Origin: a candidate division WWE3 bacterium
GTDB taxonomy: Bacteria > Patescibacteriota > WWE3 > UBA101185 > UBA10185
Assembly (NCBI GenBank): GCA_003599255.1
Contig: QZJF01000016.1
Coordinates: 863 to 64,862 of the forward strand
DNA length: 64,000 nt
Direction of reading: 5' to 3'
Part shown: piece by piece, positions 265-62,631 of the stretch
Position numbering within the stretch: the stretch's first letter is position 1
Layout of the letters: each line of letters begins with the position of its first letter
The notes under the pieces: model-generated
What the model was told of the DNA's origin: nothing
The model's database searches: none
Seen by the model: only the letters and a program-made list of their open reading frames with translations
Program-made: the position numbers and the translations under genes

Positions 265-320
265 TGCATAGGAAGGTAAAAATTTTTATTACCTTACCTT
301 CCTATGCATCTCGTTCCTTT
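265..320. terminator. Perfect 15-bp inverted repeat (265-279 / 294-308) with 14-nt loop, followed by T-rich tract; likely bidirectional terminator between convergent genes
   Basis: gcataggaaggtaa ... ttaccttcctatgc read directly, then tctcgttccttttccttt. Sits between the stop of the + strand CDS (243) and the stop of the minus CDS (302). Confidence 0.5.
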
Positions 321-2509
321 TCCTTTAGAAAAAAAATAACTTCATTTAACCATTCCTTGCTGTGTGTCACGAATGTATTGTGTCCTGCGTCTTTGATTAC
401 CACAAAATTCGAATTTTTAATACCCTTGTGCAACTTTTCCCCTTCGTATAACGGGGTCATGGTGTCCTTATCGCCCCAGATTATTAGTGTCTTCGAGTCA
501 ATACTATTCAGATATGCTGTAAGATCCATGTTTACTACTTTATTTAATGTTTTACGCATTAGTGGTGTTGCACGTTTATAATCGGGGGACCCCATGAATT
601 TCACATAAATTTCAAGCAGGCGGTCATACAATTTTTCCGGCAACATAGTCCTAAGAAACTTTTTAATATTTTTAACAGAAAAAGATTTGGATATTTCAGT
701 TTTAACATCTTTTCTGTTTGCTACACCCGCAGCATTTGTAAGTATTAATTTATTTACAAGATCAGGATACTTAGAGGCGATATAAATTGCGAGTCTCCCT
801 CCAAAAGAATGCCCGATAAAATTGTAAGGTTTTCCGATATTCATTTGGCTTAATTTTTGGATCACAAAATCCGCATATTCAGGAATGCCCCAAGCCTCTT
901 TTGGTTCTTCGAGATCAAAACCTGGAAGCTGCATACTTACAGTCGGTAATCCTGCTGTATTAAGTGAGTCTTCAATTAATTTCCACTTCTTGGCCGAGGT
1001 GCCCCAACCGTGAAGCAGCACTGTTGTATTTTTGTTAGTTGTATCCATAACATGTAAAAAATCATCAACCAATTCCGAATGTTTAAATTCTAAATTTCCG
1101 TTAACGACAATATAAACTCTTTCGTTACCCGCTGACAGAGCTTGCATTTTTTTAATTGTCGATCCCTTATCATTTACTGTAATGATTTTTACGTTATCTT
1201 TAAGATGCCCGGCATACTTGACAGCTTTTATTCCCGAAAGTATTACATAATCAAACTTTGAGTTAATAATGTTCCAAGCTTTCTCATCCATTTCTTCTTC
1301 TTCATGAAAGTCAAAGTCGCCAAGTACAAGTATACGTTTGCCCGTCCAATGAAGCTCGTCAATTAATTCAAGTAAATGTTTAGTGTTTGTAGGGGTACCT
1401 TTAGCATAGTTGCTAAATAACTTAATACGTCCGTTTTCTAATATATGCCAGTTCATTCTTCCGGGCATAGGAATAAAATTAGTCAGACTGTCCATTATGG
1501 TCTGCGGATTGATTTTTAGTACATATCCTACCGATACCGCTGCTAAAGCAGTATACAGTCCTGATTTTCCAAGCAAAGATATGTTGCCGCTCACATTTTT
1601 GCCCGAAACGGAAATTTGATATAGGGTTGATATATCGAATTGTTCGAGTACTTTGCCTTTAATATCTCCATCTTTAATACCGAAAGTTACGATTTCTTTT
1701 TTTAACTCGTTACTTAATTTCAACGACTTGGCAAGATTTGGATCGTCTTTATTTAAAATTACCGTACCTTTTTCTTTTTGACATTTGATAATCTCGTTTT
1801 TAGCCTCAATTATACCTTCGACTCCTCCCAGAGTTTTGGAATGCGCTTCTTTAATGTTGAATACAAGCGATATATCAGGAGGAGCAATTCCACAAAGTTT
1901 TTCGATGGCTCCTTTTCTATCGGCAGGCAGTTCTATTACTAAGTAATAAGGTACTCCGGCGGTACTTAATGCTAGGTTAAAGACCATTTCCGGCAAAGTA
2001 ATTGGTGTAGGACGGGTTGTATATAACTTGTTTATATTTAACCCGGAGTTTTGTAAAACGGTATTTATACAATGAACCACAGTGGTTTTACCGGAGGATC
2101 CTGTAACCGCAATAATCTTTGTATTTAAATTTTCCAATAGGGCCTTTGCGGCTATTCCCATAAATTCTATTACGTTAGCCACTTTGAAATACGCGACTTC
2201 AGAATCTATTTTGTCAGGAAACTCCTCACAGACAATAATTTTGGCGCCATTTTTTATGGCATTATCTATAAAAGGTTGTCCATCAAAAAAGTATTTTCCG
2301 GGATTAGGTTTATACATGTACCAATATCTTTCTTCATATTTTTCTATAGGAAGTCTCGTTGCAAAGAAGACTGAGTTCACCACGCATTTTCTGCTGTCGG
2401 AAGTTGCCAACACAGGTCCAATTGTTTCAAGATCTACTGATGTATTTTTAATGTTTGTGCAGTGATCCCTTAGTATCTGCACTAATAGCTTTTTTTGGTT
2501 TAAATTCAT
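302..2509 (-). CDS. Mur ligase family protein (MurF-like, UDP-MurNAc-peptide ligase) fused to a C-terminal alpha/beta-hydrolase domain
   Basis: P-loop IIAVTGSSGKTT typical of MurF (GSSGKT) in the N-terminal ~480 aa. C-terminal ~240 aa has HGWG and GHSFGG nucleophile elbow and is ~50% identical to the standalone hydrolase at 3900-4628. Confidence 0.7.
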   Translation of the reverse strand: MNLNQKKLLVQILRDHCTNIKNTSVDLETIGPVLATSDSRKCVVNSVFFATRLPIEKYEERYWYMYKPNPGKYFFDGQPFIDNAIKNGAKIIVCEEFPDKIDSEVAYFKVANVIEFMGIAAKALLENLNTKIIAVTGSSGKTTVVHCINTVLQNSGLNINKLYTTRPTPITLPEMVFNLALSTAGVPYYLVIELPADRKGAIEKLCGIAPPDISLVFNIKEAHSKTLGGVEGIIEAKNEIIKCQKEKGTVILNKDDPNLAKSLKLSNELKKEIVTFGIKDGDIKGKVLEQFDISTLYQISVSGKNVSGNISLLGKSGLYTALAAVSVGYVLKINPQTIMDSLTNFIPMPGRMNWHILENGRIKLFSNYAKGTPTNTKHLLELIDELHWTGKRILVLGDFDFHEEEEMDEKAWNIINSKFDYVILSGIKAVKYAGHLKDNVKIITVNDKGSTIKKMQALSAGNERVYIVVNGNLEFKHSELVDDFLHVMDTTNKNTTVLLHGWGTSAKKWKLIEDSLNTAGLPTVSMQLPGFDLEEPKEAWGIPEYADFVIQKLSQMNIGKPYNFIGHSFGGRLAIYIASKYPDLVNKLILTNAAGVANRKDVKTEISKSFSVKNIKKFLRTMLPEKLYDRLLEIYVKFMGSPDYKRATPLMRKTLNKVVNMDLTAYLNSIDSKTLIIWGDKDTMTPLYEGEKLHKGIKNSNFVVIKDAGHNTFVTHSKEWLNEVIFFLKEKERDA

Positions 2510-18878: not shown

Positions 18879-19250
18879 ATGCAATATCAAATAACTTCAG
18901 ATAACATACAGCAAATTTCTCCCAGTATGGATGCTTTAGCAAAAGATAAGCTCCAAAAGTTATCGGGCAAACTACAACACGTAAATGAGGATCTCAAATC
19001 ATTCCGTGTGGTTATGAATACTATTCCTGACAATCAGTTTGAAGTTAAGATAAACGCAACTATCCACGGAAAAACATACTTTGTACATGAAAAGGGTTAT
19101 ACGTTGGAACAATCCATGGTAGCCGCGGTAGATTTACTTGCAAGAATGCTTCAAAAGGATAAAATGGTGTCTACGTCTGAGGAGTGGCAGGAGATACGTG
19201 ATGCAAAACGCGACGAACTAAGTGAAGAAGAACTCAACGAATTGATATAA
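18879..19250 (+). CDS. hpf: ribosome hibernation promoting factor / RaiA (S30AE family)
   Basis: 123 aa with the typical N-terminal pattern (MQYQITSDNIQQISPSMDALAKDKLQKL...). Confidence 0.7.
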   Translation: MQYQITSDNIQQISPSMDALAKDKLQKLSGKLQHVNEDLKSFRVVMNTIPDNQFEVKINATIHGKTYFVHEKGYTLEQSMVAAVDLLARMLQKDKMVSTSEEWQEIRDAKRDELSEEELNELI

Positions 19251-19271: not shown

Positions 19272-19347
19272 GGGCGATTAGCTCAATTGGCAGAGCGCTC
19301 GTCTTATACACGAGTGGTTCCTGGTTCGATCCCAGGATCGCCCACCA
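19272..19347 (+). tRNA. tRNA-Ile with UAU anticodon (reads AUA), CCA encoded
   Basis: Cloverleaf with standard numbering: acceptor GGGCGAT/ATCGCCC identical to tRNA-Ile(GAU) at 56613-56689. Anticodon loop CTTATAC gives anticodon TAT. Confidence 0.75.
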
Positions 19348-19935
19348 TTAAAAGATTATGTCTGTGTTTGGAAGCCTTGTTCTCAACTCACTAACCATAT
19401 TTCCATCTAATGGATTTCCCTTAATGTTTAATTCATCCAGATGCGTAAGATTGTAAATCTCATTTGGAAGAGCAGTAATCTGATTGCCCGAGAAATCAAT
19501 CTTCTCGATTTTAGGCAGCTGTCCCACCTCGGCGGGAATTCCCGTCAGCTCGTTGTCATGTACATCCAGGATTCTCAGGTCGGTAAACATTCTAATTTCT
19601 CCCGGTAATGCCCTCAGTCCGCTGTCTACGATGTTCAACTCCCGAAGGTTTTTAAGCTTTCCGATTTCGGATGGAAGCGACTCGATGCTGTTCCCTGACA
19701 GGTCAAGTTTGGTTAAACCTGTGTCATTCAATATTTCCTTCGGAAAACTATTCAATCCCTTGTTTCTGTAATCTCCTGACCCTCCGGACTCAGTGACTTT
19801 TTCCACAACCTTATCTACTGTATCTACTGTGGCGATATTGGTTAATGTGTCTTCATATTTAATTTTTTGGTAGAAATATACTGAGAAACCTACTATCGCA
19901 CCTATTAAAATGTATGGAAGCAGGTTTTTGTTCAT
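19348..19935 (-). CDS. leucine-rich repeat (LRR) protein with N-terminal membrane anchor
   Basis: Repeats LxxLxLxxNxL (LTKLDLSGNSIESLP, LRELNIVDSGLRALP, LRILDVHDNELTGIP, IEKIDFSGNQITALP, LDELNIKGNPL). N-terminal hydrophobic segment. Confidence 0.7.
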   Translation of the reverse strand: MNKNLLPYILIGAIVGFSVYFYQKIKYEDTLTNIATVDTVDKVVEKVTESGGSGDYRNKGLNSFPKEILNDTGLTKLDLSGNSIESLPSEIGKLKNLRELNIVDSGLRALPGEIRMFTDLRILDVHDNELTGIPAEVGQLPKIEKIDFSGNQITALPNEIYNLTHLDELNIKGNPLDGNMVSELRTRLPNTDIIF

Positions 19936-19978
19936 AGGGTATTATACCCTGTATGTAGAGATGTTGCTTGGACTGACA

Positions 19979-21049
19979 TTATTCCTGTTCTTTGGAAAGG
20001 GTGTCTATAGTTATTATTTCGGTATCGGGATGAGCTGCCCTAATGCTCTGCAGTTCTCCGTTAGCTAAATCAAGTAATCTCTGCGCTCTTCTTATAGTCG
20101 CCAGATTAGCGGGGTTGTTAGAATTTAGCAAAGTGAGTTGTTTTAGTCTGTTCAGTAACTTTGGATTACTTAAAAGTCTGTCAAGATCCGTATAACTAAC
20201 TTCATTTAGAGAGAAGAGTTCGCTTGGCTTTAGACCTTCCTGAGTTTCCTGTGCTTTTGCTTCAAAGATATCAACTTCATCACTTATCTCATTGGTTTCG
20301 TTAACACTATCCAGGTCTTGAATCATAAGTTCAGCGTTTTCCTCGATACGCTCACTTTTTAGTGCCGGTGCCGCCTCTACAACCGCTGCCTGCGGAATCC
20401 CTACCTCGACCGGCATTGTTGAATTCAGGGAACCTACCGTTCCCGGTGAAAGCTTTTTGTTTCCTCTTCTGAGATATTGCTCAATTTCATCGTCTGACAG
20501 AAACTGTTCCAGCCGTGCCCGCATTGTTGCAGGTGTTTCACCGTTTGGGGTTAAATTCATGGGTATATTCACAATAGCTCGTGTAACCGGGTTTTCATCC
20601 GCTCCCGTTCCTGATTTTGATTCCGGGATCATAGAAATTTCCTGCGACATTCTGTCCTCAAATGTTATTTGCGCTCCGAGAAAATTTTCTTCAATTGAGG
20701 CAGGATCTGCTGCGGAAAGGTTCTCATTTAAAGAACCAATTTGGTTTAAGAGCATGGCGGCGTGTTTTCTTACATTTGGATCATGGGAATTGTTTGCCAG
20801 GTCTTCCAGTGAAACCACCAGAATTTCCTTTCGCATTACTTGTTGATTTGCTTCCACGGGATTTGCATTAGATGTTTCGACTTTGAACGACCCTTCGTTT
20901 TTGAGAGATTTCCGCGCCCTGTCTGCCAGGTCGTGAATTTCTTCGGTTGTCAATTCGTCATTCTTTTCCGGGGTAATGGACTCAGGTTTTTCCTCTGTGC
21001 CGGTTTCTTGTAATTCCTGATCCTCAATGTTCAGTTTCTCATCATTCAT
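19979..21049 (-). CDS. hypothetical acidic protein
   Basis: 356 aa, very acidic. No catalytic motifs found. Confidence 0.4.
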   Translation of the reverse strand: MNDEKLNIEDQELQETGTEEKPESITPEKNDELTTEEIHDLADRARKSLKNEGSFKVETSNANPVEANQQVMRKEILVVSLEDLANNSHDPNVRKHAAMLLNQIGSLNENLSAADPASIEENFLGAQITFEDRMSQEISMIPESKSGTGADENPVTRAIVNIPMNLTPNGETPATMRARLEQFLSDDEIEQYLRRGNKKLSPGTVGSLNSTMPVEVGIPQAAVVEAAPALKSERIEENAELMIQDLDSVNETNEISDEVDIFEAKAQETQEGLKPSELFSLNEVSYTDLDRLLSNPKLLNRLKQLTLLNSNNPANLATIRRAQRLLDLANGELQSIRAAHPDTEIITIDTLSKEQE

Positions 21050-21115: not shown

Positions 21116-21991
21116 TTAAAGAATTCCTAGGTCTGTCTTTTCTTCTTCGGTGTCACGCTCGATATACTGCAGATATCTTTCTGTGGTGGATATTCTTTTG
21201 TGTCCGGCTATTTTTGATATATGAATTATGCTCACACCGGTTGCCAGGTGATGCGCCACAAAAGTATGTCTAAGATCATTTACTTTTGCATTTTCTACCC
21301 CGGCAAGTTTGAAATACCTATTAATCGTTGAACGGATATTTCTCACAAGCAGCGGTTTGCCTGTTTTTGTAATGAATAAGTGTTTAGCGTTTTCTAATTT
21401 TGGTCTGTCCTCGTTTATGTACTCTTTGATAGCTTCAACAACAGCCTTGTTTAGAGGAACAGTTCTCGCGTCTTTGTTATTTTTCTTGGGTACAAACAAA
21501 GATCCGGACTCTTCGTCCAGACTTATGTCTTCCATCCGGATTTCAGCAAGCTCGGAAATAGTAATTCCCGTCTGCAATAAGACCTCTATCATAGCGTAAC
21601 TTCTTAAATCATCTTTTGCAGCATCTCTAAGTGCCCGATACTCAAGTTTAGAGAGTATTCTGGGGGCCTTGATGTCCACTTTTGGATGTTTAAGTAAATC
21701 GGCAATATTATCTTTAATATGGCCTTCTTTGTGAAGAAACTTAAAGAAAGTCTTTGTGGCATTTGTTTTTCTGGAAATTGATTTAGGGGTGTATTCTTCT
21801 TCGGAGAGTTTAGACATAAAGCCCTCCAAATGAACCAATTCAACTTCAGTTACAATATTTACACCTGATTTTGAAAGGTGTTCCATTAACTGTTCAATAT
21901 CTTTACTGTAGGCTATAAGGGTAGAACTTGACTTTCCCTCACTCTCAAGGGCCTCAATAAACTTTTTATGAGCTAAATCTAATTTAATCAT
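21116..21991 (-). CDS. tyrosine site-specific recombinase (XerC/XerD/integrase family)
   Basis: C-terminal catalytic region HDLRHTFVAHHL ... GHKRISTTERYL (R..HxxR..Y). 291 aa, XerD-like size. Confidence 0.8.
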   Translation of the reverse strand: MIKLDLAHKKFIEALESEGKSSSTLIAYSKDIEQLMEHLSKSGVNIVTEVELVHLEGFMSKLSEEEYTPKSISRKTNATKTFFKFLHKEGHIKDNIADLLKHPKVDIKAPRILSKLEYRALRDAAKDDLRSYAMIEVLLQTGITISELAEIRMEDISLDEESGSLFVPKKNNKDARTVPLNKAVVEAIKEYINEDRPKLENAKHLFITKTGKPLLVRNIRSTINRYFKLAGVENAKVNDLRHTFVAHHLATGVSIIHISKIAGHKRISTTERYLQYIERDTEEEKTDLGIL

Positions 21992-22580: not shown

Positions 22581-22654
22581 CGCGGGGTGGAGGAATGGCA
22601 CCTCGTCAGGCTCATAATCTGAAGGTCCCGGTTCGAATCCGGGCCCCGCAACCA
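22581..22654 (+). tRNA. initiator tRNA-fMet (anticodon CAU), CCA encoded
   Basis: CGCGGGG...CCCCGCAACCA with C1·A72 mismatch, as in E. coli tRNA-fMet. Anticodon loop CTCATAA. Confidence 0.8.
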
Positions 22655-22756: not shown

Positions 22757-22832
22757 GCCAACGTAGCTCAGTGGTTAGAGCGGGCGTTTCATAAGCGCTA
22801 GGTCGGTGGTTCAATTCCACCCGTTGGCACCA
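22757..22832 (+). tRNA. tRNA with CAU anticodon: elongator tRNA-Met or tRNA-Ile2 (lysidine)
   Basis: Acceptor GCCAACG/CGTTGGC. Anticodon stem GGCGT/GCGCT and D-loop AGTGGTTA resemble E. coli tRNA-Ile2 more than tRNA-Met. CCA encoded. Confidence 0.75.
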
Positions 22833-22838
22833 AGATAT

Positions 22839-23846
22839 ATGTTTAAAAAGAAAAGAATTTTAACCGGAGACAACCCTACTGGAAGGCTTCATTTAGGTCA
22901 TTATGTAGGCTCCCTTGAAAACAGAGTGCGGCTACAAAATGATTATGAGACCTTTATTTTGGTTGCCGATATGCACGCGTATGCCTATCCAAAATATGTA
23001 GGAGAGCCTGATATTGTTTCAAAGTCCGTAATTGATGTAACGGTGGACAACCTTGCAGTGGGACTTGACCCAGAAAAGTCCACAATATTTGTGGAGTCAG
23101 CGATACCGGAAATATATGAGTTGGGTATCATTTTCAGCATGCTGACCTCTCACGCCAGAGTTTTAAGGAACCCTACTCTCAAGGAAGAGATTAAAGTAAA
23201 AGAAATGGGAGACAATTACTCTCTTGGTTTTGTTAATTTCCCGCTTTTGCAGGTAGCTGACATACTGTGTGTGAGGGCAGATCTGGTTCCGGTAGGAGAA
23301 GATCAGCTTCCTCATCTGGAGCTTACGAATGAAGTTGTGAGGAAATTTAACGGAACATATGGTCTGACTTTTGAGGAAATTGAGCCGATGATAGGAAGGG
23401 TCAAAAGATTGGTGGGGCTGGACGGCAATGCCAAAATGACCAAGTCCCTTGGCAATACTATTTATCTTAGTGAGGATAGAGAAAGCCTAAAGAAAAAAGT
23501 CATGTCTATGTATACGGATCCTAACAGGCTCAGAGCCAGCGATCCGGGAAAGGTGGACGGAAATCCGGTATTCATTTATCACGATGCTTTTAACCAAAAT
23601 GAGGAGGAAGTGAAAGAACTTAAAGACAGGTATGTTAAGGGGAAAGTAGGTGACGTTGAGGTTAAAGAAAAACTATTTGTCGCTCTTGATGAGTTCCTCA
23701 CTCCGATCAGGGAGAGACACTCCTATTACGAGGGCCATAGAGATGAAGTCAGGGACATTTTAAGATCTGGTACAGATAAAACAAGGAATATTGTTCAGGG
23801 CACTCTTGATGATGTGAAGTCTAAAATGATGCTTTTTGGTATATAA
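22839..23846 (+). CDS. trpS: tryptophanyl-tRNA synthetase
   Basis: Class I motifs HLGHY (HIGH) and KMTKS (KMSKS), ~335 aa. ORF track start 22806 overlaps the tRNA; ATG 22839 used. Confidence 0.8.
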   Translation: MFKKKRILTGDNPTGRLHLGHYVGSLENRVRLQNDYETFILVADMHAYAYPKYVGEPDIVSKSVIDVTVDNLAVGLDPEKSTIFVESAIPEIYELGIIFSMLTSHARVLRNPTLKEEIKVKEMGDNYSLGFVNFPLLQVADILCVRADLVPVGEDQLPHLELTNEVVRKFNGTYGLTFEEIEPMIGRVKRLVGLDGNAKMTKSLGNTIYLSEDRESLKKKVMSMYTDPNRLRASDPGKVDGNPVFIYHDAFNQNEEEVKELKDRYVKGKVGDVEVKEKLFVALDEFLTPIRERHSYYEGHRDEVRDILRSGTDKTRNIVQGTLDDVKSKMMLFGI

Positions 23847-23870: not shown

Positions 23871-25727
23871 ATGGCAAATAAAAAAAGTAACAACAGAAAC
23901 CAAAGAAAACCGGGTATGAAATCAAAAAGACAGCTAGGAATTTTTAACAATGTATTTTTTTACATCTTTCTTGTTTTTACGCTTTACATGCTTCTGGTTT
24001 CTTTTTCCCAATTTTCCGCAAGTTCAAAAGAAGTCCCGATAAGTGAAGTGATCACAAATATCAGAGAGGAAAAAGTTCAGGATATTGTTGTTTCGGATAA
24101 TGACATTGAGGTTTTGCTCAAAGATGGCACAAAAATTGTTGCCAAAAAAGAGAGCGCTATAAGTTTTGATGAAGTTTTGAAAAATAACAATCTCGATGCG
24201 TCCAAAATTGCCGGTGAGTTACGAGTTGAACATAGGTTATCCTTTGAACAGATACTGACACCCCTTATCATGTTCGGTTTTCCCATTTTGATTTTATTTT
24301 TGATTTTTAGGCAGATGAAGACTTCCAGCGGTGATATATTTTCATTTGGCAGGTCCCGCGCACGTGTCTTTTCTCACGGGCAATCTCGCATAACATTTAA
24401 TGATGTTGCGGGTATTGAAGAGGCTAAGAGAGAAATGATGGAGATTGTGGATTTTCTTAAGTACCCTCAAAAATACAGAAAATTGGGCGCACGAATACCA
24501 AAAGGTGTGTTGCTGGTAGGACCTTCGGGTGTGGGTAAGACACTTCTTGCCAAAGCAATTGCCGGAGAGGCAAATGTACCTTTTTTCAGTGCCGCCGGAA
24601 GTGAGTTTATGGAAATGCTGGTGGGTGTGGGTTCATCTCGTGTTAGAGATTTGTTCAGAATGGCAAGAGAAAGCCAACCCAGCTTGATATTTATTGATGA
24701 GGTCGATGCCATAGGCAGACAGCGGGGAATGGGTATAGGTGGAGGTCACGATGAACGTGAGCAGACTTTAAACCAGATTCTTATAGAGATGGACGGTTTT
24801 GATACCAGAACCGATGTTATTGTCTTGGCCGCAACAAACAGACCCGATATGCTTGATCCTGCATTAATTAGACCCGGCAGATTTGACAGAAAAATTACAA
24901 TTCCCCTTCCGGATATTAAGGAGAGAGAGGAAATCATAAAAATTCACATGAGAGGAAAGCCATTTACCGATGACTTGAAACTGGAACGCATTGCCAAAAA
25001 GACGGTGGGATTCAGCGGAGCGGATATAGAAAATATGCTTAATGAGGCTGCGATATTAGCTGCACGGGCAGGAAAAGAGTTTATCTCCCAGACAGATGTT
25101 GATGAAGCAGCGTTGAAAGTAACTTTGGGCTCAGAGAGGAAAACGCTTCAGAGCGAGGAAGAACGCAAGATGACTGCATATCATGAAGCCGGACATGCCC
25201 TTGTATCCGCTTATGTAAAAGACATGGACCCTGTCTTTAGAGTCTCGATAGTTGCAAGGGGCGGGTCGCTTGGACATACAAGTTTTCCACCCGAACGTGA
25301 CAGATACAATGAAACAAAAACAAGGCTTATGTCTGTTATTTCAACCATGCTTGGAGGAAGAAGTGCGGAAGAAATTGTATTTGGAGAACTTACTGTAGGT
25401 GCCGCTGATGACATTGATAAGGCAACAAAGATAGCCCGAAGGATGGTAACCGAATTTGGAATGAGCTCTTTAGGTCCGATTTCTTTCAATGGTAAAGAAG
25501 CAAATCCGTGGGTAGCACGTGAAATAGGCGAAGCCCATTCTATTAGTGACGATGTAGCTTCGAAGATTGACACGGAAGTGGAAAAGATAATTAACGAGTG
25601 CCACAGCCAAGCCTTGGAAATCCTTAGAGTAAATAGAGATAAGCTGGACAAGATTTCAAGTCTTTTGCTTGAAAAAGAAACAATCTACGAAGACGAATTC
25701 AAAAGCATAATAAATCCCCAGGAGTGA
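23871..25727 (+). CDS. ftsH: ATP-dependent zinc metalloprotease FtsH
   Basis: N-terminal TM, AAA module (GPSGVGKT, DEVDA, SRH region), HEAGH zinc motif. Confidence 0.9.
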   Translation: MANKKSNNRNQRKPGMKSKRQLGIFNNVFFYIFLVFTLYMLLVSFSQFSASSKEVPISEVITNIREEKVQDIVVSDNDIEVLLKDGTKIVAKKESAISFDEVLKNNNLDASKIAGELRVEHRLSFEQILTPLIMFGFPILILFLIFRQMKTSSGDIFSFGRSRARVFSHGQSRITFNDVAGIEEAKREMMEIVDFLKYPQKYRKLGARIPKGVLLVGPSGVGKTLLAKAIAGEANVPFFSAAGSEFMEMLVGVGSSRVRDLFRMARESQPSLIFIDEVDAIGRQRGMGIGGGHDEREQTLNQILIEMDGFDTRTDVIVLAATNRPDMLDPALIRPGRFDRKITIPLPDIKEREEIIKIHMRGKPFTDDLKLERIAKKTVGFSGADIENMLNEAAILAARAGKEFISQTDVDEAALKVTLGSERKTLQSEEERKMTAYHEAGHALVSAYVKDMDPVFRVSIVARGGSLGHTSFPPERDRYNETKTRLMSVISTMLGGRSAEEIVFGELTVGAADDIDKATKIARRMVTEFGMSSLGPISFNGKEANPWVAREIGEAHSISDDVASKIDTEVEKIINECHSQALEILRVNRDKLDKISSLLLEKETIYEDEFKSIINPQE

Positions 25728-39285: not shown

Positions 39286-41073
39286 TTAGTAATGCCCCCG
39301 TTTTTGATTTTTGTACATTTTTTTAATTTCGTCCGTTGTTGTAGCGTCAGTTGCCCCTTTGTCCTTTCGGAATCGTAAAAGCCTCGGGAACCTCAAAGCA
39401 TATCCGGCACTATGAGAGGGAGACTCAGAGATTTCGTCCGCACCAATTTCCACAACGATTTTAGGAGAAACAATGGTGTCGGGCATGAAATTTTTTGGTA
39501 CGTCTACATTTTGGGGAAATTTGTCGATTTTTACTTTATCGCACATTAATTTTAATTCCGCCCAGTCAGAATCACTGAGGCCTGTTCCTACTTTGGAGAT
39601 GGTCTTGTAAGTATCTGTTTCCGGGTCATACACTCCAATTAGAAATCCCCCTATCCCAAACTTTGATCGTACGCCGCGACCTGCGTAATATCCCAATACA
39701 ATGCAATCTACGGAGTCGGTTAATAATTTCTTGTCTGCTTTCTTCAATTTTACCCACGAAAAGGATCTTGCGCCGGCCTGGTAGGGATCTTCCGGTCTTT
39801 TAAGAATTAATCCCTCCAAACCCTTTTCCTCCGCCAGCTCGAAATACTCTTCTATTTCTTCAAGACTGTCCGATTCTATATAATCGTCAACAATAATTGT
39901 TTCCCCATCTTTTACTATTTCTCTTAAAAGTTTCTTTCTTTCACGAAGCGTTTTGTCGACCAACGATTCCCCATTGAGGTAGAGTAGATCGAACACAAAG
40001 TATTTTAGTGGTATTTCCAAAGCAGTTTCAGAAATTCCATGCTTTCTTTTTCTCTGCATGGTTTCCTGAAAGGGTAAAAAGTCCCCGGTTTCCCTGTTAA
40101 AGCCTATTGCTTCTCCGTCAAGTATCACTGATTCGGCATCAATTTGTTCAGTCGCGGCACTTACAATGTCCGGGTATTGATGTGTGGTTTCTTCAAGATT
40201 TCTTGTAAATGTTTTAATGAGAAAACCAACCTTCTTGGAGGAAAAAAGGGGTGTTTGAGTAAGTTGGGTGTCCGTTATTGACTTAGTCCTATCCATATGT
40301 AGCTGTACCCTTGTTCCATCGAATTTGTACTCGGCCCATACGTTCTTCATTTTCTCCATTGCTTCTTCCGGACCGGATACTCTCTGTGCTTTTTGCGATA
40401 AAATAGGGACACCGGTTTCCACGACAATATTCTTCATCCCACCGATGCCACTTTTTCTTATCATTTTTGCAATGTAGCCAATATCAGGGTGAAGGCTATA
40501 CACCCGTTCGATTGCCGCCCCGGCTTTCGGATCCCCCGTAGATAATGCAAGGGCATCAGCAAGTGTTAGCTCAGTAAAGCCCAGCCTTGTAGTTCCCAGT
40601 ATTATTCTCACGACATATTTTGCTGATAACCTATTTAAATCCTTAAGCAACGCAGCAGTTTTCACCACCTTGTTATCCTGAGATCCGGATCCTTCAATCT
40701 CCGCAATTTCCTGAAGTTTTTTGTGTACTTCCTCTAGTGATAAGTTACTTTCTTTTTTCTGAGGCGCCAGTTCATAAGCAACATTACCAAGGTCTCCTGC
40801 TTTTTTGTATAACTCATTAATCTGAATTTCGGTTAGATGCCGGTTTGGAGAAGAGTAGGTTTGCAGCAATATTCTCAACATCATCCTGTCGGCAATATTG
40901 AATTTGGGATTTTCGTAGGAAGCCCTAAGATACCCGAGTGTCAAGTACACCCCTATATCGATTTCATTTGGGTCCAACTTGAGAATTAATTCAGATAGAA
41001 TGCTGGTAATTTCCAGTCGTTTGCTGGTTTTTTCCAGTTTTTCAAGATATTCCGCTAAATCAGAAAAAAGCAT
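39286..41073 (-). CDS. ATP-dependent DNA ligase
   Basis: Adenylation motif I EYKFDGTRVQ (KxDG). Ligase nucleotidyltransferase and OB-fold lengths. Confidence 0.85.
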   Translation of the reverse strand: MLFSDLAEYLEKLEKTSKRLEITSILSELILKLDPNEIDIGVYLTLGYLRASYENPKFNIADRMMLRILLQTYSSPNRHLTEIQINELYKKAGDLGNVAYELAPQKKESNLSLEEVHKKLQEIAEIEGSGSQDNKVVKTAALLKDLNRLSAKYVVRIILGTTRLGFTELTLADALALSTGDPKAGAAIERVYSLHPDIGYIAKMIRKSGIGGMKNIVVETGVPILSQKAQRVSGPEEAMEKMKNVWAEYKFDGTRVQLHMDRTKSITDTQLTQTPLFSSKKVGFLIKTFTRNLEETTHQYPDIVSAATEQIDAESVILDGEAIGFNRETGDFLPFQETMQRKRKHGISETALEIPLKYFVFDLLYLNGESLVDKTLRERKKLLREIVKDGETIIVDDYIESDSLEEIEEYFELAEEKGLEGLILKRPEDPYQAGARSFSWVKLKKADKKLLTDSVDCIVLGYYAGRGVRSKFGIGGFLIGVYDPETDTYKTISKVGTGLSDSDWAELKLMCDKVKIDKFPQNVDVPKNFMPDTIVSPKIVVEIGADEISESPSHSAGYALRFPRLLRFRKDKGATDATTTDEIKKMYKNQKRGHY

Positions 41074-47327: not shown

Positions 47328-48401
47328 GTGTTTATAAAGAAGAATAAAGGAAAAAAGAAAGTTGCGATAGGTTTAAGCGGCGGAGTCGATTCGTCGGTTG
47401 CTGCGTATCTACTAAAGGAACAGGGATTTGAAGTTGTAGGCGTGTATATGCAGTGTTGGGATGAAAAGGCCGACGGGTGTGTCGCTGATGTCGATAGAAG
47501 CTTTGCAGTAGCTACAGCCGCGTCTCTGGGGATAAAATTTATTCATCTGGACTTTAAAGATAGATACAAGTCCAAAGTCATTGATTATTTTTATTCCGAG
47601 TATGAGCATGGGCGCACCCCTAATCCTGATGTATTGTGTAATAAAGAAATTAAGTTTGGGCTTTTTTACGATTGGGCACTTGAAAAGGGTTACGATTTTG
47701 TAGCTACGGGACACTATGCGCGCGTCGAGACCGGAAACAATGAAATCCTTTTGAAAAGAGGAATAGATGAATCTAAAGATCAATCCTACTTTTTATATTT
47801 GTTAGAACAGAGGCATTTAGAAAAGGTTATTTTTCCGGTGGGTAATCACACAAAGGCTGAAATCAGAGAAATTGCAAAAAACACCAACTTGCCCCCTGCT
47901 AAGCGCCCTGAGAGTATGGGAATTTGTTTCATAGGGGAGGTTGATATTAAAGATTTTTTAAAAAAGAGGATTGAAGAGAGGAAAGGAGAGGTTATTTTTA
48001 AGGATGGTGAGAATATTGGAGAACATGACGGGGTTTGGTTCTACACAATAGGGCAACGTCACGGGTTTAGGGTAAATAAATACTTCGGAACGCCATTATA
48101 TGTTTTATCAAAGGATATGACACGCAACACGCTGACTGTGGGCAGGTATGATGATGCGTTATCAGAGGCTTTTGAAATAAGTGATATACACTGGATAGGC
48201 AAAAATTACCTGTCTGATTGTAAAGATTTGAAGTGCGATGTAAGAATAAGGCACTTGGGAGAGATTATTAATTGTAATTTGGTAATGATTGAGTCCGGAT
48301 TTCGCGTTGAGTTGACTAAACCGGTCTTTGCTGTTGCACCCGGACAGAGTGCCGTTTTCTATAAAGACGATGTGGTCTTGGGCGGTGGTGTAATAGTCTG
48401 A
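47328..48401 (+). CDS. mnmA: tRNA-specific 2-thiouridylase MnmA
   Basis: PP-loop SGGVDSS and catalytic Cys region. 357 aa. GTG start. Confidence 0.9.
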   Translation: MFIKKNKGKKKVAIGLSGGVDSSVAAYLLKEQGFEVVGVYMQCWDEKADGCVADVDRSFAVATAASLGIKFIHLDFKDRYKSKVIDYFYSEYEHGRTPNPDVLCNKEIKFGLFYDWALEKGYDFVATGHYARVETGNNEILLKRGIDESKDQSYFLYLLEQRHLEKVIFPVGNHTKAEIREIAKNTNLPPAKRPESMGICFIGEVDIKDFLKKRIEERKGEVIFKDGENIGEHDGVWFYTIGQRHGFRVNKYFGTPLYVLSKDMTRNTLTVGRYDDALSEAFEISDIHWIGKNYLSDCKDLKCDVRIRHLGEIINCNLVMIESGFRVELTKPVFAVAPGQSAVFYKDDVVLGGGVIV

Positions 48402-52018: not shown

Positions 52019-53338
52019 GTGAATCAGCTAATTTCAAAAATTAAAGAACACAATAAAGACCTTAAAAACAGGGAAATAGAGGGTATTTTGTACCTGCTGA
52101 TCTCTAATCATGGTATCTCGAGCATGGATTTGATAAAAGCAACCGGATTACCCAAAGAAACTTTGAGAATTTTTAAAACTTCCATTTCGCATTTACTTGA
52201 AAAAAATGATGAGGATAGACTGCAATTTACGGAAGAGAGTCTAAAAGTACTTAGGGAGTCCAATCTTCGTCCATATGATTGGAGTACTGTGAAATATGCA
52301 AACGCAGCCGCTGAAGCCGGGCTCGTTGACATAAGGAAAAAATATAAACTGCAGCCTAAGAGGGAGTTTGATCAGTTTTTTGCTACCGAAAGCACTTCAA
52401 TAGCCAAAACGATGGTGATGGAAAATAAATTAGGTCTGGAAAATAAAGATGTAGTGCTTCTTGGAGACGACGATCTAATTTCTATAGCACTTCCGTTGTT
52501 GGGAATTAAGCCAAAGAGCGTAACAGTGCTGGATATAGACAAGGATTTGCTTTCCGTTATAGAGGACATAACCGCCGATATGGGTATAAACAATACCCAC
52601 ACCTCTGTATACGATTTCAGAAAGGACCCTGACAAAAATCTTTTAAATAAATTTGATGTAGTTGTAACTGATCCGCCATATACATCGTCAGGCGTAAAGT
52701 TATTTTTAAACAGAGGGGTTCAGTTGCTCAAGAAAAAAGACGATCACTCTGGGAGTTACATTTTCTTTTATTATGGAAACAGTTTCAAATCACCGGAAAA
52801 GACTTTAAAAGTTCAGGACATTATAGGTAGATTCAATTTGGTAATTGAAGACAAGATAGACAAGTTTGCGCGGTACAATGGGGCGGAGTCTATAGGCAGC
52901 GCCAGTTCTTTGTATGTTCTTAAGTCCACATCAAGTACCTTTGAACTCAGTGACTTATCGGATTATTCCGATATTTATACGTACTCGTCAACTTCCGAAG
53001 AAAAGTTTCCGTACGTGGATCACTTTACCTTCAAGCTGTATAACGTTCCTGCGAACATGCTGAAATCAAAAACCGCTATTTTCAAGGCTGCCGGAGATTT
53101 TTGCACAAGACACAAGTTAAAGGTTGTTGACCAAAAGGTTACGAAGTTTAAAGGACAGGGGTTAACAGTAACCTATGTGCTTTCAAATTCAAACCTCTTG
53201 CTTCATACCTGGCCTGAGCACGGAGCACTGCATGTGGATCTTGTAACCTGTTCTCCCATATATGATAAGGAAGGACTTTCATACACTCTCATGAAGGTAT
53301 TCGGAGCTAAATCCATAGATACTAGGAAAATTGAATAA
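52019..53338 (+). CDS. putative bifunctional polyamine enzyme: aminopropyl/methyl-transferase-like domain (GDDDL, DPPYT motifs; DUF43/BpsA-like, tentative) fused to C-terminal S-adenosylmethionine decarboxylase (SpeH-type)
   Basis: C-terminal HFTFKLYNV ... LLLHTWPEHGALHVDLVTC matches the SpeH hallmark HTWPE...D.FTC. Middle region has VLLGDDDLIS and VVVTDPPYT. GTG start. Confidence 0.55.
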   Translation: MNQLISKIKEHNKDLKNREIEGILYLLISNHGISSMDLIKATGLPKETLRIFKTSISHLLEKNDEDRLQFTEESLKVLRESNLRPYDWSTVKYANAAAEAGLVDIRKKYKLQPKREFDQFFATESTSIAKTMVMENKLGLENKDVVLLGDDDLISIALPLLGIKPKSVTVLDIDKDLLSVIEDITADMGINNTHTSVYDFRKDPDKNLLNKFDVVVTDPPYTSSGVKLFLNRGVQLLKKKDDHSGSYIFFYYGNSFKSPEKTLKVQDIIGRFNLVIEDKIDKFARYNGAESIGSASSLYVLKSTSSTFELSDLSDYSDIYTYSSTSEEKFPYVDHFTFKLYNVPANMLKSKTAIFKAAGDFCTRHKLKVVDQKVTKFKGQGLTVTYVLSNSNLLLHTWPEHGALHVDLVTCSPIYDKEGLSYTLMKVFGAKSIDTRKIE

Positions 53339-53554
53339 AGGTTGTTATAATGAACAGGAATAACTGTTGACTTAATGATATTAAGTTGCTATCTTCCAGT
53401 TTGCTAGCAAATATATGCTAGAATTATTCGTTGTTTTGTTAATTCCGAAGAGAACTTTGAAATATACATAGATAGAGCAATCCTTGAACAATTAGTTTGA
53501 GTACCTTAAGTAACTTTGAAATTTTCGAGGTTCAAGAGGTAAGAAGAATATTTT

Positions 53555-55024
<1,470 letters not shown>

Positions 55025-55253
55025 CTAGGGAGAAAACACGTATCTTTGATTGATGGAATCTTGTGTTTGCTATACGCAAACAAAGGCCATTGAAATAGAA
55101 GATACAACATATATCCGATAGCTCTGAGGATATGTGTTTTAGGCTGTTATGTGTTGCCTCACAACAGCTGAGCAAGTTCGACAGTAAGCTTAAACTGTCA
55201 AAAGAAATATTCTTCTTGCCTTTTGGATCTTGAAATTTATATTGTTTGAAACT

Positions 55254-55622
55254 TTAGGACCTGGCTCTATCTCTGTATTCGTAACCAAGCATAATTAATT
55301 TTTGCTTCTGTTCATCATTTAAGTCTTTCCCGATTTCCTGCAGGAAGTCCTGCAACATTACTCTAATTGATTCTTCCAGATGTGTTTGGATTTCATCCTC
55401 TTTCCAGTATTTTTTAATAACCTGAGTTAATTCTTCAATATTGGCTGTTGGTGTAAAAATTTCATCAGAGCCTATTTTAGATTTAGTATCAGCCCCAAGT
55501 CTTAGAACAGCATTCCTGAATATCTTATCTGCAACATCTGTGGAAACTTCGTCTGCATTGTCAATTCCAATGCCGTTTAATAAATCAAACAAAAATTGTT
55601 TTAAAAGATTTTGATCATTCAT
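55254..55622 (-). CDS. hypothetical protein (antisense to rRNA orientation, in 16S-23S interval)
   Basis: 122-aa ORF whose start overlaps the upstream ORF stop (ATGA coupling). Confidence 0.35.
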   Translation of the reverse strand: MNDQNLLKQFLFDLLNGIGIDNADEVSTDVADKIFRNAVLRLGADTKSKIGSDEIFTPTANIEELTQVIKKYWKEDEIQTHLEESIRVMLQDFLQEIGKDLNDEQKQKLIMLGYEYRDRARS

Positions 55623-56035
55623 TACGATTCCTTTTCCTGTTGATTTTCAAAATGTTCTGCTGCTCTGCCGAAATATCTCGACATTCCATAGCCTACTGCG
55701 GCGCCGATGCTGCCAGAGATCACTCCGGCAGGGTTCCCGGTCACGGCTCCAATTGGAACTGTACCGGCTGACATGCTTCCCGTAACCAAAGTGCCTTTGC
55801 TTAGCGATTTAGCCAATTTTGCTCTTTCTTCATCTGTTTCTGCCCCTTTCTCAATATACTTTATTGCCATCCCTAATGCCGCTTCATCCATTCTTTCCAG
55901 CCAACCGCCTATAGTTTGCTTAATAGTTTCCATGTTACTAAGTTGTTCGGGTTGGGATATATCCGCAACACTTTCTGTTGCGTCTTCCGCCGAAAAATTC
56001 TCGTGTTCTGCGTCGTCTTTTAAAAACTCACTCAC
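55622..56035 (-). CDS. hypothetical protein with C-terminal glycine-zipper hydrophobic segment
   Basis: Acidic N-terminal half, then GTLVTGSMSAGTVPIGAVTGNPAGVISGSIGAAVGYG (GxxxG repeats). GTG start; start uncertain. Confidence 0.35.
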   Translation of the reverse strand: MSEFLKDDAEHENFSAEDATESVADISQPEQLSNMETIKQTIGGWLERMDEAALGMAIKYIEKGAETDEERAKLAKSLSKGTLVTGSMSAGTVPIGAVTGNPAGVISGSIGAAVGYGMSRYFGRAAEHFENQQEKES

Positions 56036-56109
56036 CTAATTATTATCAAACGGGCGGTAACTGAAGTCAACCGTTGTCGTGACTTGATTTAATGGTGTAA
56101 AATGCACCT

Positions 56110-56529
56110 ATGACAATAACTAATGGTAAAGAAAAAGGAATTGCAGTCGGAGTTGTCAAGAATCCTGCAGGAAAAGTGTTGATAATGGATAGGATAAGAA
56201 AAGAAACCGGTGCTGACGGAAGCAAGCTTACCTGGGTCTTTCCAGGGGGAAAGCTTGACGGTTCCGAAACGTTTGAAGACGCAGTTGTCCGCGAAATTTT
56301 GCTGGAAACAGGGTTTAAGGTAAAAGTTAACAAACTTATCTCCGAAAGAGTTCATCCGCAATTTGAGGTCCCGATCAAATACTTTGCCTGCGAATTAGCC
56401 GAATTTCGGACAAGGCCCATACAGGAAATTCACGAAGTATCAACAATAAGATGGGTAGATGTCTCAGAGCTACGCGATTACTTTACTACGGATATTGATC
56501 CCAACGTCGCGAAGTTTTTAAAGATTTAG
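56110..56529 (+). CDS. NUDIX hydrolase
   Basis: Nudix box GGKLDGSETFEDAVVREILLETG (Gx5Ex7REUxEExGU). Confidence 0.75.
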   Translation: MTITNGKEKGIAVGVVKNPAGKVLIMDRIRKETGADGSKLTWVFPGGKLDGSETFEDAVVREILLETGFKVKVNKLISERVHPQFEVPIKYFACELAEFRTRPIQEIHEVSTIRWVDVSELRDYFTTDIDPNVAKFLKI

Positions 56530-56541
56530 CCTAAATGTTCT

Positions 56542-56564
56542 TGGTGGGCGATCGTGGACTCGAA
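56542..56564. repeat. 23-nt direct repeat identical to the 3' end (T-loop to CCA) of the adjacent tRNA-Ile(GAU); att-site-like duplication
   Basis: tggtgggcgatcgtggactcgaa occurs at 56542-56564 and again at 56613-56635 (the tRNA 3' end on the minus strand). The copies are 48 nt apart. Confidence 0.6.
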
Positions 56565-56612
56565 GACGCTCGCTTCGTTCGCTTGGTTCTCGTTGAGTAG
56601 ACCAAAAGTATA

Positions 56613-56689
56613 TGGTGGGCGATCGTGGACTCGAACCACGGACCTTTCCCTTATCAGAGGAATGCTCTAACCACCTGAGCTAATCGCCC
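56613..56689 (-). tRNA. tRNA-Ile (anticodon GAU), CCA encoded, antisense to the rRNA genes
   Basis: Cloverleaf: GGGCGAT acceptor, anticodon loop CTGATAA, T-loop TTCGAGT. Confidence 0.85.
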
Positions 56690-56765
56690 TAGAAACAGAT
56701 GAATTCTACCATGTGATTTCTCCGGAAGTCTACGCTAGATCAATATATTATGATAACATTTTGGT

Positions 56766-57821
56766 ATGTACAAGCTTTTTGCTTTACTTTTTTTCTCTCT
56801 ACCTCCACTGTTACTATTTGCCATTCTGCTTAGAGTGGACGACAATCTTGGTTTTGGTCTGACAATATATCTGTTTTTGGCAATTCTGCTCCTTTATGTG
56901 ATATTTTTTGTTCTGGTCATTTTTCGCAGTATGTTTCAGATGAAAAAGGAACTCGCCGTAAGCCGTTTCATGAAGCTTCTGTCTGATGAGTTTCACATTG
57001 TATCTAAAAAATACTCTTTTTTTGTCAATTCCTTGTTGTTTTCCTGGTTGGTTGTTTTGGTTTTTATCATGTTTTACACAGTGAGTTTTATGTTTGCGCA
57101 ATATGTGGGAAAGCATTATGGAGATGAGATTAGAAATTTCCTGAAACAGCCTACGGTTAGCACATCGGACTTGTTGAATACAACTGAGGAGATGAAAGAT
57201 GAGTTGCGGGACCTCAAAACAAAGTTTTACGAACAAAATCAGTTAGATTTTTTTTCCAATAATTCTAGTACTTACTCTGAGGAGGAGGCACCTTACATTG
57301 TATTCTTAGATTTCAGCTTCCGCGAGGATTCCTCACCGGGGTTCAAGAGTTATTTTCTGTACTCTGTAAACATCTGTGCCGACGATGATCCGGAAAGTAT
57401 TGGGGTAGAGAGATGTTTGGATATCAGAGGTCCCATGGATTCTGAACTAAAGTTTAAATTCGCAAAGGAAGAAACTGTGTCGAATATTAATTTACGGGAG
57501 ATTTATGCCGCGGATTTTAACCAGCCATTCTTTGTACTCGAAATTGAAACAAATCTTAGGGATGCAGCGGTGCTGGTATATCCTGTCGATACTGATGATC
57601 TAAGCTACTCATACATTCCAAATACCAGTATCAACTCCGAGGCGAAGTTCGCAACATATGTGCAGGTCAATCAAATACAGAACGGTATTGTTTTTCTCGA
57701 ACGTATCAGGGACTTAGTAAACGGAGTAGTTGATGATACCGGAAAAGATCTGCATGTCACTGTTTTTAAAGAGAATGGTATTGTGAACTACCAGTATTCT
57801 CCGGTTAACGTCCAGCCCTAA
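56766..57821 (+). CDS. hypothetical membrane protein
   Basis: 351 aa. Four N-terminal TM segments followed by a soluble domain. Confidence 0.45.
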   Translation: MYKLFALLFFSLPPLLLFAILLRVDDNLGFGLTIYLFLAILLLYVIFFVLVIFRSMFQMKKELAVSRFMKLLSDEFHIVSKKYSFFVNSLLFSWLVVLVFIMFYTVSFMFAQYVGKHYGDEIRNFLKQPTVSTSDLLNTTEEMKDELRDLKTKFYEQNQLDFFSNNSSTYSEEEAPYIVFLDFSFREDSSPGFKSYFLYSVNICADDDPESIGVERCLDIRGPMDSELKFKFAKEETVSNINLREIYAADFNQPFFVLEIETNLRDAAVLVYPVDTDDLSYSYIPNTSINSEAKFATYVQVNQIQNGIVFLERIRDLVNGVVDDTGKDLHVTVFKENGIVNYQYSPVNVQP

Positions 57822-57830
57822 TTTTAATTT

Positions 57831-58829: not shown

Positions 58830-59088
58830 CATCACTTTATACCGGTGCTAGAGTATCAGGTACGGAATGGGTAGTTCAACTTCCATATGGACTTTCTTTG
58901 CGTTTTTATGCGCAGGAATCTTAAAAAGATTCTTCAGGAAGCTCTGAATATCTATGTTTTAAACAATTGAATGTGAATAGTTTTACTTGTTGATTAAGTG
59001 TGCTACATTAGTGAGACCTGCAGTATGTTAGGCCAATGAGTGCATTCTCGGTCCTGCCTACGCGGGCTTGTACAGTCCCGTAAGTTTA

Positions 59089-59164
59089 CGGGCCTGTAGC
59101 TTAGTTGGTAGAGCGCCGCATTTGCATTGCGGAGGTCACGGGTTCGAATCCCGTCGGGTCCACC
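59089..59164 (+). tRNA. tRNA-Ala (anticodon UGC), CCA encoded
   Basis: G3·U70 identity pair. Anticodon loop TTTGCAT. T-loop GGTTCGAATCC. Confidence 0.9.
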
Positions 59165-59254
59165 AGATTAGTAAGTGCCCTTTGAAAACTGAATAAAAGT
59201 ATCTGATTTCGAAAGAAGTCAGGATACGAAAACTCTAAATTTTATGACAACAAT

Positions 59255-62385
<3,131 letters not shown>

Positions 62386-62514
62386 TATGAAGTCATAGAG
62401 AAGAGTTTTTGTATTCGGCTTTAGCCGCTTTACGCGCTTGCGCGAAAGGGGCCGGAGGCCACTTTTATTCAGTTTTTAGAGGGTACGAACATTAAAAATA
62501 AGTTTGTGTTCAGC

Positions 62515-62631
<117 letters not shown>

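Follow-up and report, generated by a model that had tools for sequence, protein, structure and literature searches.

The lysidine system, in which TilS modifies C34 of a tRNA-Ile2 transcribed with a CAU anticodon so that AUA, and not AUG, is read as isoleucine, is usually regarded as near-universal and essential in bacteria. Mycoplasma mobile has no tilS and reads AUA with an unmodified tRNA-Ile(UAU); in its isoleucyl-tRNA synthetase (IleRS) a conserved Trp, Trp905 in E. coli, is replaced by Arg865, and discrimination against AUG takes place on the ribosome itself (Taniguchi et al. 2013, PMC3575796). Bifidobacterium and Neorickettsia are likewise devoid of tilS and possess a tRNA-Ile(UAU) together with a eukaryote-type IleRS2 (PMC3575796), and in Bacillus subtilis suppressors of a tilS deletion a tRNA-Ile with U34 rescues AUA decoding (Fabret 2011; Kohrer 2014, PMC3919564). 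Here we describe a tRNA-Ile gene with the anticodon UAU, located in a 64,000-nucleotide (64-kb) stretch of contig QZJF01000016.1 from a bacterium of candidate division WWE3, a class of ultra-small Patescibacteria; this whole stretch is referred to below as the window. We conclude that the gene probably yields a functional tRNA-Ile, and that this tRNA is devoted to reading AUA, most likely as the bacterium's sole decoder of that codon.

The WWE3 gene resembles the M. mobile case in that a gene-encoded UAU appears to replace tRNA-Ile2(CAU), no lysidine substrate seems to be left, and AUA is frequent. The two cases differ in reach and in base composition: the M. mobile switch is a single species-level event in Tenericutes, whereas the WWE3 trait is class-wide and perhaps extends over much of the phylum, and the WWE3 source genome, at about 41% GC, is not extremely AT-rich, unlike M. 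mobile. Furthermore, the state of U34, Arg865 of IleRS and the rejection of AUG have been demonstrated in M. mobile, whereas for WWE3 the comparison covers tRNA genes and codon usage. Bifidobacterium and Neorickettsia are similar to WWE3 in their reliance on tRNA-Ile(UAU), although there the natural acceptance of UAU by IleRS2 accounts for it. As for the B. subtilis suppressors, these are laboratory mutants with a G34U change in tRNA-Ile1(GAU), whereas the WWE3 gene is old, evolves separately and is 76% identical (pairwise) to the tRNA-Ile(GAU) of the same window. Given that the suppressors regain AUA decoding, a switch from lysidine to U34 is evolutionarily accessible. The canonical tRNA-Ile2 and TilS perform the same task as the one proposed here, but with UAU present in the WWE3 gene itself, a modification of C34 is unneeded.

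The call itself is clear. Among the six tRNA genes that ARAGORN reports in the window is a tRNA-Ile of 76 nt with the anticodon tat, placed precisely at 19272-19347 of the forward strand. Rfam's covariance model for tRNA aligns to 19272-19344 with a score of 69.1 bits (E 5.7e-13; gathering score 29) and zero non-canonical pairs flagged. The centroid fold is a cloverleaf of -29.5 kcal/mol, while the minimum free energy is -30.7 kcal/mol (z = -3.4 versus dinucleotide shuffles). Read from its 5' end, the tRNA consists of the acceptor strand GGGCGAU followed by UA, a D-arm of GCUC-AAUUGGCA-GAGC followed by G, the anticodon arm CUCGU-CUUAUAC-ACGAG, the variable region UGGUU, the T-arm CCUGG-UUCGAUC-CCAGG, the acceptor strand AUCGCCC, A73 and CCA. 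The anticodon loop CUUAUAC thus places C32, the anticodon U34 A35 U36, A37 and C38. An initial annotation, made from the sequence without database searches, had described a clean cloverleaf with a TAT anticodon; ARAGORN and Rfam agree with it, and the anticodon is confirmed. A consensus scan for a promoter or terminator belonging to the tRNA gene itself performed no better than chance.

The same annotation had assigned isoleucine identity from an acceptor stem in common with tRNA-Ile(GAU), and this holds as well. In the alignment, the acceptor stem GGGCGAT/ATCGCCC is identical in the two tRNAs, and C29-G41, A37 and A73 are common to both. The claim that the whole D-arm is identical was too broad: the D-stem GCTC/GAGC is the same, but the D-loops are unlike (AATTGGCA versus AGGTGGTTA). 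Isoleucine identity elements of the resident tRNA-Ile(GAU) are thus present, and C38 stands in place of A38; in E. coli, A38 is a recognition element for IleRS. Pairwise identity is 76% to tRNA-Ile(GAU), as given above, and 84% to a marine Ile2(CAU) tRNA whose acceptor was fixed by the search pattern; the gene may derive from either kind.

The gene is conserved well beyond the source genome. The window's own proteins bear the locus tag C4561 and are named at NCBI as belonging to a candidate division WWE3 bacterium. The window is 100% identical to the JGI metagenome contig Ga0104761_1000119 (78.6 kb), all 76 nt of the gene are repeated in an independent sample (L002, DNA 99.97% identical), and a relative on an ENA contig (L003, 88% identical) has a single T-loop substitution and keeps TAT. 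The anticodon is the same in assemblies from JGI, ENA, NCBI and Logan. In a pattern scan with each GTDB species represented by a single genome, the acceptor of tRNA-Ile(UAU) together with TAT turned up in two metagenome-assembled genomes (MAGs) named as WWE3 and in a further two that bear the label Saccharibacteria, the proteins of the latter two being 68-74% identical to Xer, TrpRS and FtsH of the window; the combination also occurs in five MAGs of archaea and one of Chloroflexota. Homologue look-ups with Xer and HPF added GCA_001773215.1 (an 897-kb contig), a genome like GW2011_GWF2_41_45 and a relative with 44% HPF identity. When Xer, CofD-like and HPF proteins were used as queries (best 120 matches per query), the matches belonged to the same syntenic lineage; the named ones are mostly WWE3, and a few are labelled Saccharimonadales or Patescibacteria group (HPF matches, n=9).

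In these relatives tRNA-Ile(UAU) occupies the same site (L003, L125, L128, L129/130, L133, L257/258 from GCA_001773215.1, L259/260 and L261), down to 66% Xer and 44% HPF identity. The upstream order in every fetched WWE3 locus is SufS-NifU-DUF1858-(Fer4)-HPF and then tRNA-Ile(UAU), and the downstream order is tRNA-Ile(UAU)-[variable open reading frames]-xer-divIC-tRNA(CAU, initiator)-tRNA(CAU)-(trpS)-ftsH. Eight of the WWE3 sequences were aligned over 21 stem pairs, which gives 168 pair cells, with L261 as a ninth locus. All 168 cells hold standard pairs, and five pairs (4-69, 6-67, 27-43, 28-42 and 51-63) have changed on both sides with no pair broken. Among 500 shuffles, none reached the observed percentage of paired cells, the number of cells changed on both sides or the covariation score, while the count of doubly changed pairs was reached by two shuffles and that of further pair types by one; in controls with slid partners, the pairing signal collapses. 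L261 contributes additional compensatory changes, and the loop CUUAUAC is invariant across all nine loci. Because of the repeat assemblies, the fixed synteny, the compensatory changes and the invariant loop, sequencing error, pseudogene and recent mutation are excluded, and tRNA-Ile(UAU) is a genuine conserved gene.

The initial annotation had left a choice between loss of the lysidine pathway and a supplementary decoder, and the tRNA census favours the loss. The complete WWE3 genome GCA_000503835.1 (RAAC2) contains two Ile and two Met(CAU) tRNAs by ARAGORN, or two Ile and one Met by tRNAscan-SE 2.0, as compared with one Ile and three CAU tRNAs in canonical Saccharimonadia (PMC13011429 Table S2). 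A lysidine system would call for three CAU tRNAs (initiator, elongator Met and Ile2) and for an AUA decoder transcribed with CAU; the WWE3 genome has two, and the decoder carries TAT in all assemblies. In the window, two CAU tRNAs sit 3.3 kb downstream of tRNA-Ile(UAU), the first of which, at 22581, bears the initiator hallmarks of a C1xA72 mismatch and A11-U24. As the second must then read internal AUG, the two CAU tRNAs would leave no substrate for lysidine formation. We infer that tilS has been lost from the lineage.

The local gene content points in the same direction. In a six-frame motif scan, no TilS was found in the window, in which the sole open reading frame (ORF) with the SGGxDS (PP-loop) motif is MnmA, the tRNA U34 2-thiouridylase. 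Neither TilS nor IleRS is encoded in the remaining 14 kb of the 78.6-kb contig, where the genes include S1, Clp, RadA and PIN-TRAM, and IleRS is absent from the window and from the fetched loci. In Firmicutes and Actinobacteria, tilS-hpt classically precedes ftsH. At every WWE3 locus, what comes before ftsH is either trpS or the pair of CAU tRNAs itself, and no gene annotated with PF01171 lies in those 14 kb or around ftsH at the WWE3 loci for which gene tables exist, a search that was not genome-wide.

We propose that IleRS would charge tRNA-Ile(UAU) through the set in common with tRNA-Ile(GAU), namely the acceptor, the D-stem pair U12-A23, C29-G41, A35, U36, A37 and A73, if charging in WWE3 follows the E. 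coli identity rules. U34 would then pair in Watson-Crick fashion with the A of AUA, and A37 is expected to carry N6-threonylcarbamoyladenosine (t6A), as in other readers of ANN codons. AUG would be read by the two CAU tRNAs, with the one at 22581 acting as initiator and the one at 22757 as elongator. In this lineage, tRNA-Ile2(CAU) and the lysidine made by TilS would have been replaced, as in M. mobile.

A Watson-Crick decoder of AUA fits the heavy use of this codon. Codon usage was calculated from 60 non-overlapping ORFs with more than 17,000 codons. AUA occurs at 29.2 per 1000 codons (AUC 15.2, AUG 20.9), makes up 37% of the Ile codons and is used in 59 of the 60 ORFs. On the published scale for AUA (low <2, medium 3-10, high >10; Borrelia 39; PMC12514573), the WWE3 source is a high-AUA genome despite its GC content of about 41%. 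Hence the earlier description of an AUA-rich, low-GC genome is right about AUA, while the GC content is only moderately low, at about 40-41%. The UAU decoder would explain how a genome of 41% GC affords AUA at this share of its Ile codons.

It seems unlikely that tRNA-Ile(UAU) merely adds AUA capacity to a lineage that has kept TilS and a lysidine-bearing tRNA-Ile2, the latter being the CAU tRNA at 22757. This tRNA had been annotated as Ile2-like, and its resemblance to E. coli tRNA-Ile2 is real: its best E. coli match is an annotated tRNA-Ile (82.6-84.1% over nt 8-76), its global identity is 78% to what we take to be the ileX sequence and 67% to the presumed tRNA-Met sequence, and its C29-G41 and G27.U43 are presumably also those of the E. 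coli tRNA-Ile2 stem. However, its acceptor, GCCAACG, is Met-like and differs entirely from the one common to both Ile tRNAs, its D-stem is of the elongator type, and its U32 matches the elongator tRNA-Met of locus L230, whereas Ile2-type tRNAs have C32. E. coli TilS reportedly requires the acceptor pairs C4-G69 and C5-G68, in place of which the tRNA at 22757 has A4-U69 and A5-U68. Its anticodon arm is GGCGU-UUCAUAA-GCGCU; given that a nearly identical stem, GGCGY/GCGCU, is found in this genome's tRNA-Asn, the anticodon stem is not specific to Ile2. If the tRNA at 22757 were Ile2, no elongator tRNA-Met would be left among the two CAU tRNAs of the complete WWE3 genome; since one of these is the initiator, the other is most likely the elongator tRNA-Met, contrary to its Ile2-like label. 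The WWE3 elongator may itself be a former tRNA-Ile2 gene that switched to Met identity when lysidine was lost. Coexistence of the two decoders does occur: at least two Ile plus at least three CAU tRNAs are counted in 10 of 95 complete Patescibacteria genomes, some bacteria hold both systems, and a 'redundant' intermediate stage with both decoders has been proposed by Taniguchi et al. (PMC3575796). With tRNA-Ile(UAU) as the only AUA decoder, several points still have to be set on the other side of the balance. With a body that most resembles E. coli tRNA-Ile2, the tRNA at 22757 might yet serve as a TilS substrate. The assignment of the two RAAC2 Ile tRNAs to GAU and UAU, and of its two CAU tRNAs to orthologues of those at 22581 and 22757, is drawn from nine other loci, and the probable absence of tilS is deduced from the census of RAAC2, another WWE3 genome, combined with local gene content. 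If it carries no modification, U34 might also read AUG by wobble. Finally, tRNA-Ile(UAU) is known here as a gene, from which its expression and aminoacylation are predicted.

Other explanations fare worse. Since one C-to-T change suffices to turn CAU into UAU, the anticodon might in principle reflect a CAT-to-TAT error of sequencing or assembly, or a decaying copy of tRNA-Ile2, but there is no other support for this, and it is hardly credible in view of the same anticodon in independent assemblies and in species whose HPF identity falls to 44%, of compensatory changes without a broken pair, and of the high Rfam score; the sequencing error that the initial annotation had allowed for is thus not borne out. 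An accessory tRNA carried in by a phage or an integrative element is very improbable. The generic tRNA(UAU) pattern is frequent among phages, with matches on more than 120 viral contigs, and a gene of the Phage_integrase family, xer, lies 1.8 kb downstream of tRNA-Ile(UAU), with variable cargo in between. Nevertheless, tRNA and recombinase alike belong to the core genome, each at a fixed position in 9 of 9 WWE3 loci, and the recombinase is a XerC/D-like protein of 291 aa that is 66-89% identical across WWE3 among the matches listed. The window shows neither a direct repeat of the 3' end of the tRNA nor an att-like repeat, its GC profile is flat at about 40-41%, the neighbours are housekeeping genes by Pfam, and the acceptor stem is that of the host's own tRNA-Ile(GAU). 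An origin from a phage or island was therefore rejected on fixed synteny, conserved Xer and the lack of att repeats, and tRNA-Ile(UAU) is a core chromosomal gene, not mobile DNA. Equally remote is a different identity or decoding range, by which a modified U34 would read both AUA and AUG, or a synthetase other than IleRS would charge the tRNA. C38 replaces the A38 that we take to be the E. coli IleRS element, and with MnmA encoded in the window, 2-thiouridine chemistry is at hand, although the known substrates of MnmA are the Lys, Glu and Gln tRNAs. Against this, the acceptor and D-stem are those of tRNA-Ile(GAU), C29-G41, A37 and A73 are kept, AUA is used at an Ile-like frequency with no sign of recoding, and the ORFs translate normally with table 11 and give full-length Pfam matches.

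The anticodon UAU is also found in tRNA-Ile genes of archaea such as Nanoarchaeum and Korarchaeum. The archaeal MAG loci recovered here (L124, L126, L127 and L132) have the same acceptor GGGCGAU, the same loop CUUAUAC and nearly the same stem (UCGU/ACGA) as the WWE3 gene, but differ from it in archaeal-type D-loops, in their T-arms and in not encoding the full 3'-CCA, with an overall identity of about 75%. This likeness may reflect constraint, convergence or an old transfer. L131 (Tepidiformaceae, Chloroflexota) likewise encodes a UAU tRNA, with C38 and this acceptor. Phage tRNA-Ile(UAU) genes are abundant and have the same anticodon, but they lie in tRNA arrays, their acceptors vary, and they carry mostly A38 or U38, with C38 in 15%; the WWE3 gene, in contrast, is chromosomal and syntenic and has the host Ile acceptor. 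All UAU tRNAs examined from WWE3, Chloroflexota and archaea carry C38.

When a metagenome scan was run for a CAU version of tRNA-Ile(UAU), at least 120 matches were obtained, mostly marine or from phage-like arrays, and none of the matches listed was a syntenic relative from the Candidate Phyla Radiation (CPR). A recurrent marine array consists of tRNA(CAU, Ile2-type GGGCGAU)-tRNA-Leu(UAA)-tRNA-Arg(UCU) (L136, L137, L144, L146 and about 50 other loci) and resembles a phage-style kit for rare codons ending in A or U. In L160, L168, L212 and L239, a tRNA-Ile(UAU) is additionally found beside the Ile2-type gene.

To place WWE3 within its phylum, we used the published ARAGORN tRNA counts for the 95 complete Patescibacteria genomes (PMC13011429 Table S2), which give no anticodons. 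At least two Ile and at most two CAU tRNAs are counted in 39 genomes, comprising all Dojkabacteria, Microgenomatia, WWE3, UBA1384 and Doudnabacteria, most Paceibacteria, and some ABY1 and Gracilibacteria. At most one Ile and at least three CAU tRNAs are counted in 45, comprising 29 of 36 Saccharimonadia, all JAEDAM01 (SR1-type), Kazan-3B-28, and some Paceibacteria and Gracilibacteria. Besides the ten genomes that combine at least two Ile with at least three CAU tRNAs, a single one follows neither pattern. The split is nearly exclusive (Fisher's test 7e-16, not corrected for phylogeny), and its bimodality goes undiscussed in PMC13011429. On these counts, the WWE3 pattern may extend to about 40% of complete Patescibacteria genomes, the extra 'Ile' tRNA having been verified as UAU for WWE3 only. 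The view that a UAU isoacceptor is rare thus stands for bacteria in general, but not for Patescibacteria, if those 39 genomes are taken as the measure. A replacement of lysidine and TilS by tRNA-Ile(UAU) on the scale of the phylum, affecting most of its classes, namely Microgenomatia, Dojkabacteria, WWE3, ABY1, UBA1384, Doudnabacteria and most Paceibacteria, with the older system kept in Saccharimonadia, the SR1-type and some others, has in our estimate about an even chance of being correct.

The literature searched contained no paper that joins lysidine, tilS or tRNA-Ile(UAU) with WWE3, CPR or Patescibacteria, and papers on ava2C and on TilS kinetics contribute no data on CPR. As the mechanism is already known from M. 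mobile, the novelty lies in the lineage and in the scale, which is class-wide and possibly phylum-wide. If the proposal is true, the WWE3 class, and possibly much of CPR, would be the largest natural exception to the essentiality of TilS, and a natural test case for how misreading of AUG is avoided without lysidine, be it by adaptation of IleRS, by discrimination at the ribosome or through the C32/C38 loop. For annotation, it would mean that CAU tRNAs in these genomes should not receive an automatic Ile2 label, and that marker sets based on tilS under-score such genomes.

The features of the window are collected in Table 1. The gene for HPF ends 21 nt upstream of tRNA-Ile(UAU) and is its conserved upstream neighbour, so that co-transcription of the two is possible. 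The interval from the tRNA to xer is a hypervariable slot of 17 nt to 3.2 kb with other cargo in each genome. It is almost empty in L130 (17 nt) and L125 (about 100 nt), and holds a single leucine-rich repeat (LRR) gene in L128, an LRR gene and an ORF of 356 aa in the window (19348-21049, reverse strand), three ORFs of no known function in L258, a GT87 glycosyltransferase in L259 and an ORF of 84 aa in L261.

Table 1. Coordinates of tRNA-Ile(UAU) and of other features in the 64-kb window.
Feature	Position	Strand	Evidence	Remark
Mur-ligase middle domain and alpha/beta hydrolase fusion	302-2509	-		
HPF/RaiA ribosome hibernation factor	18879-19250	+	Pfam PF02482; synteny	
tRNA-Ile(UAU)	19272-19347	+	ARAGORN, Rfam, cloverleaf fold	3'-CCA encoded
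LRR protein	19348-19935	-	Pfam	Variable cargo
356-aa protein without known function	19979-21049	-	Pfam	Variable cargo
XerC/D-type tyrosine recombinase	21116-21991	-	Pfam Phage_integrase family, homologues, synteny	291 aa
Initiator tRNA-fMet(CAU)	22581-22654	+	ARAGORN, Rfam, alignment, sequence read directly	
Second CAU tRNA	22757-22832	+	ARAGORN, Rfam, alignment	Probable elongator tRNA-Met
trpS	22806-23846			Class Ib synthetase; upstream of ftsH
ftsH	23871-25727	+		Preceded by trpS and two CAU tRNAs
ATP-dependent (archaeal/eukaryotic-type) DNA ligase	39286-41073	-		
MnmA, tRNA U34 2-thiouridylase	47328-48401	+	SGGxDS motif; Pfam PF03054/PF20259/PF20258	
BpsA-like branched-chain polyamine synthase C-terminal domain and S-adenosylmethionine (AdoMet) decarboxylase fusion	52019-53338	+		Just upstream of 16S rRNA
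Unusual rRNA operon region	53553-62630			
16S rRNA	53553-55024		Rfam	1472 nt; short, helix deleted
tRNA-Ile(GAU)	56613-56689	-	ARAGORN, Rfam, alignment	AUU/AUC decoder
23S rRNA	59257-62387		Rfam	3131 nt with insertions, versus a 2925-position model

Some further features of the tRNAs were observed. The 3'-CCA is encoded in all four of the aligned window tRNAs, and for the Asn and Ala tRNAs the ARAGORN call likewise ends 3 nt past the Rfam match. The anticodon stem of the initiator at 22581 (U27-A43, C28-G42, A29-U41, G30-C40, G31.U39) keeps one of the three near-universal G-C pairs at 29-41, 30-40 and 31-39. This reduced stem is conserved in the close WWE3 relatives L125, L128, L130 and L133, and the L261 initiator has G29-C41, G30-C40 and G31.U39. 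The elongator CAU tRNAs of L128 (2922-2997, reverse strand) and L130 (1854-1928, forward strand) have the T-loops UCCGAGU/UCCGAUU, with C at position 55 in place of the universal U (pseudouridine 55). The succession of divIC and a tRNA-Met gene is reminiscent of the divIC...tilS-hprT-ftsH region of B. subtilis.

The rRNA genes of the window are unusual as well. The 16S and 23S rRNA genes are spaced 4.2 kb apart by five ORFs (including a NUDIX and a CofD/YvcK-like protein) and by tRNA-Ile(GAU) on the opposite strand, while a tRNA-Ala(UGC) lies directly ahead of the 23S gene. The short 16S rRNA, the insertion-bearing 23S rRNA and the split operon are hallmarks of CPR.

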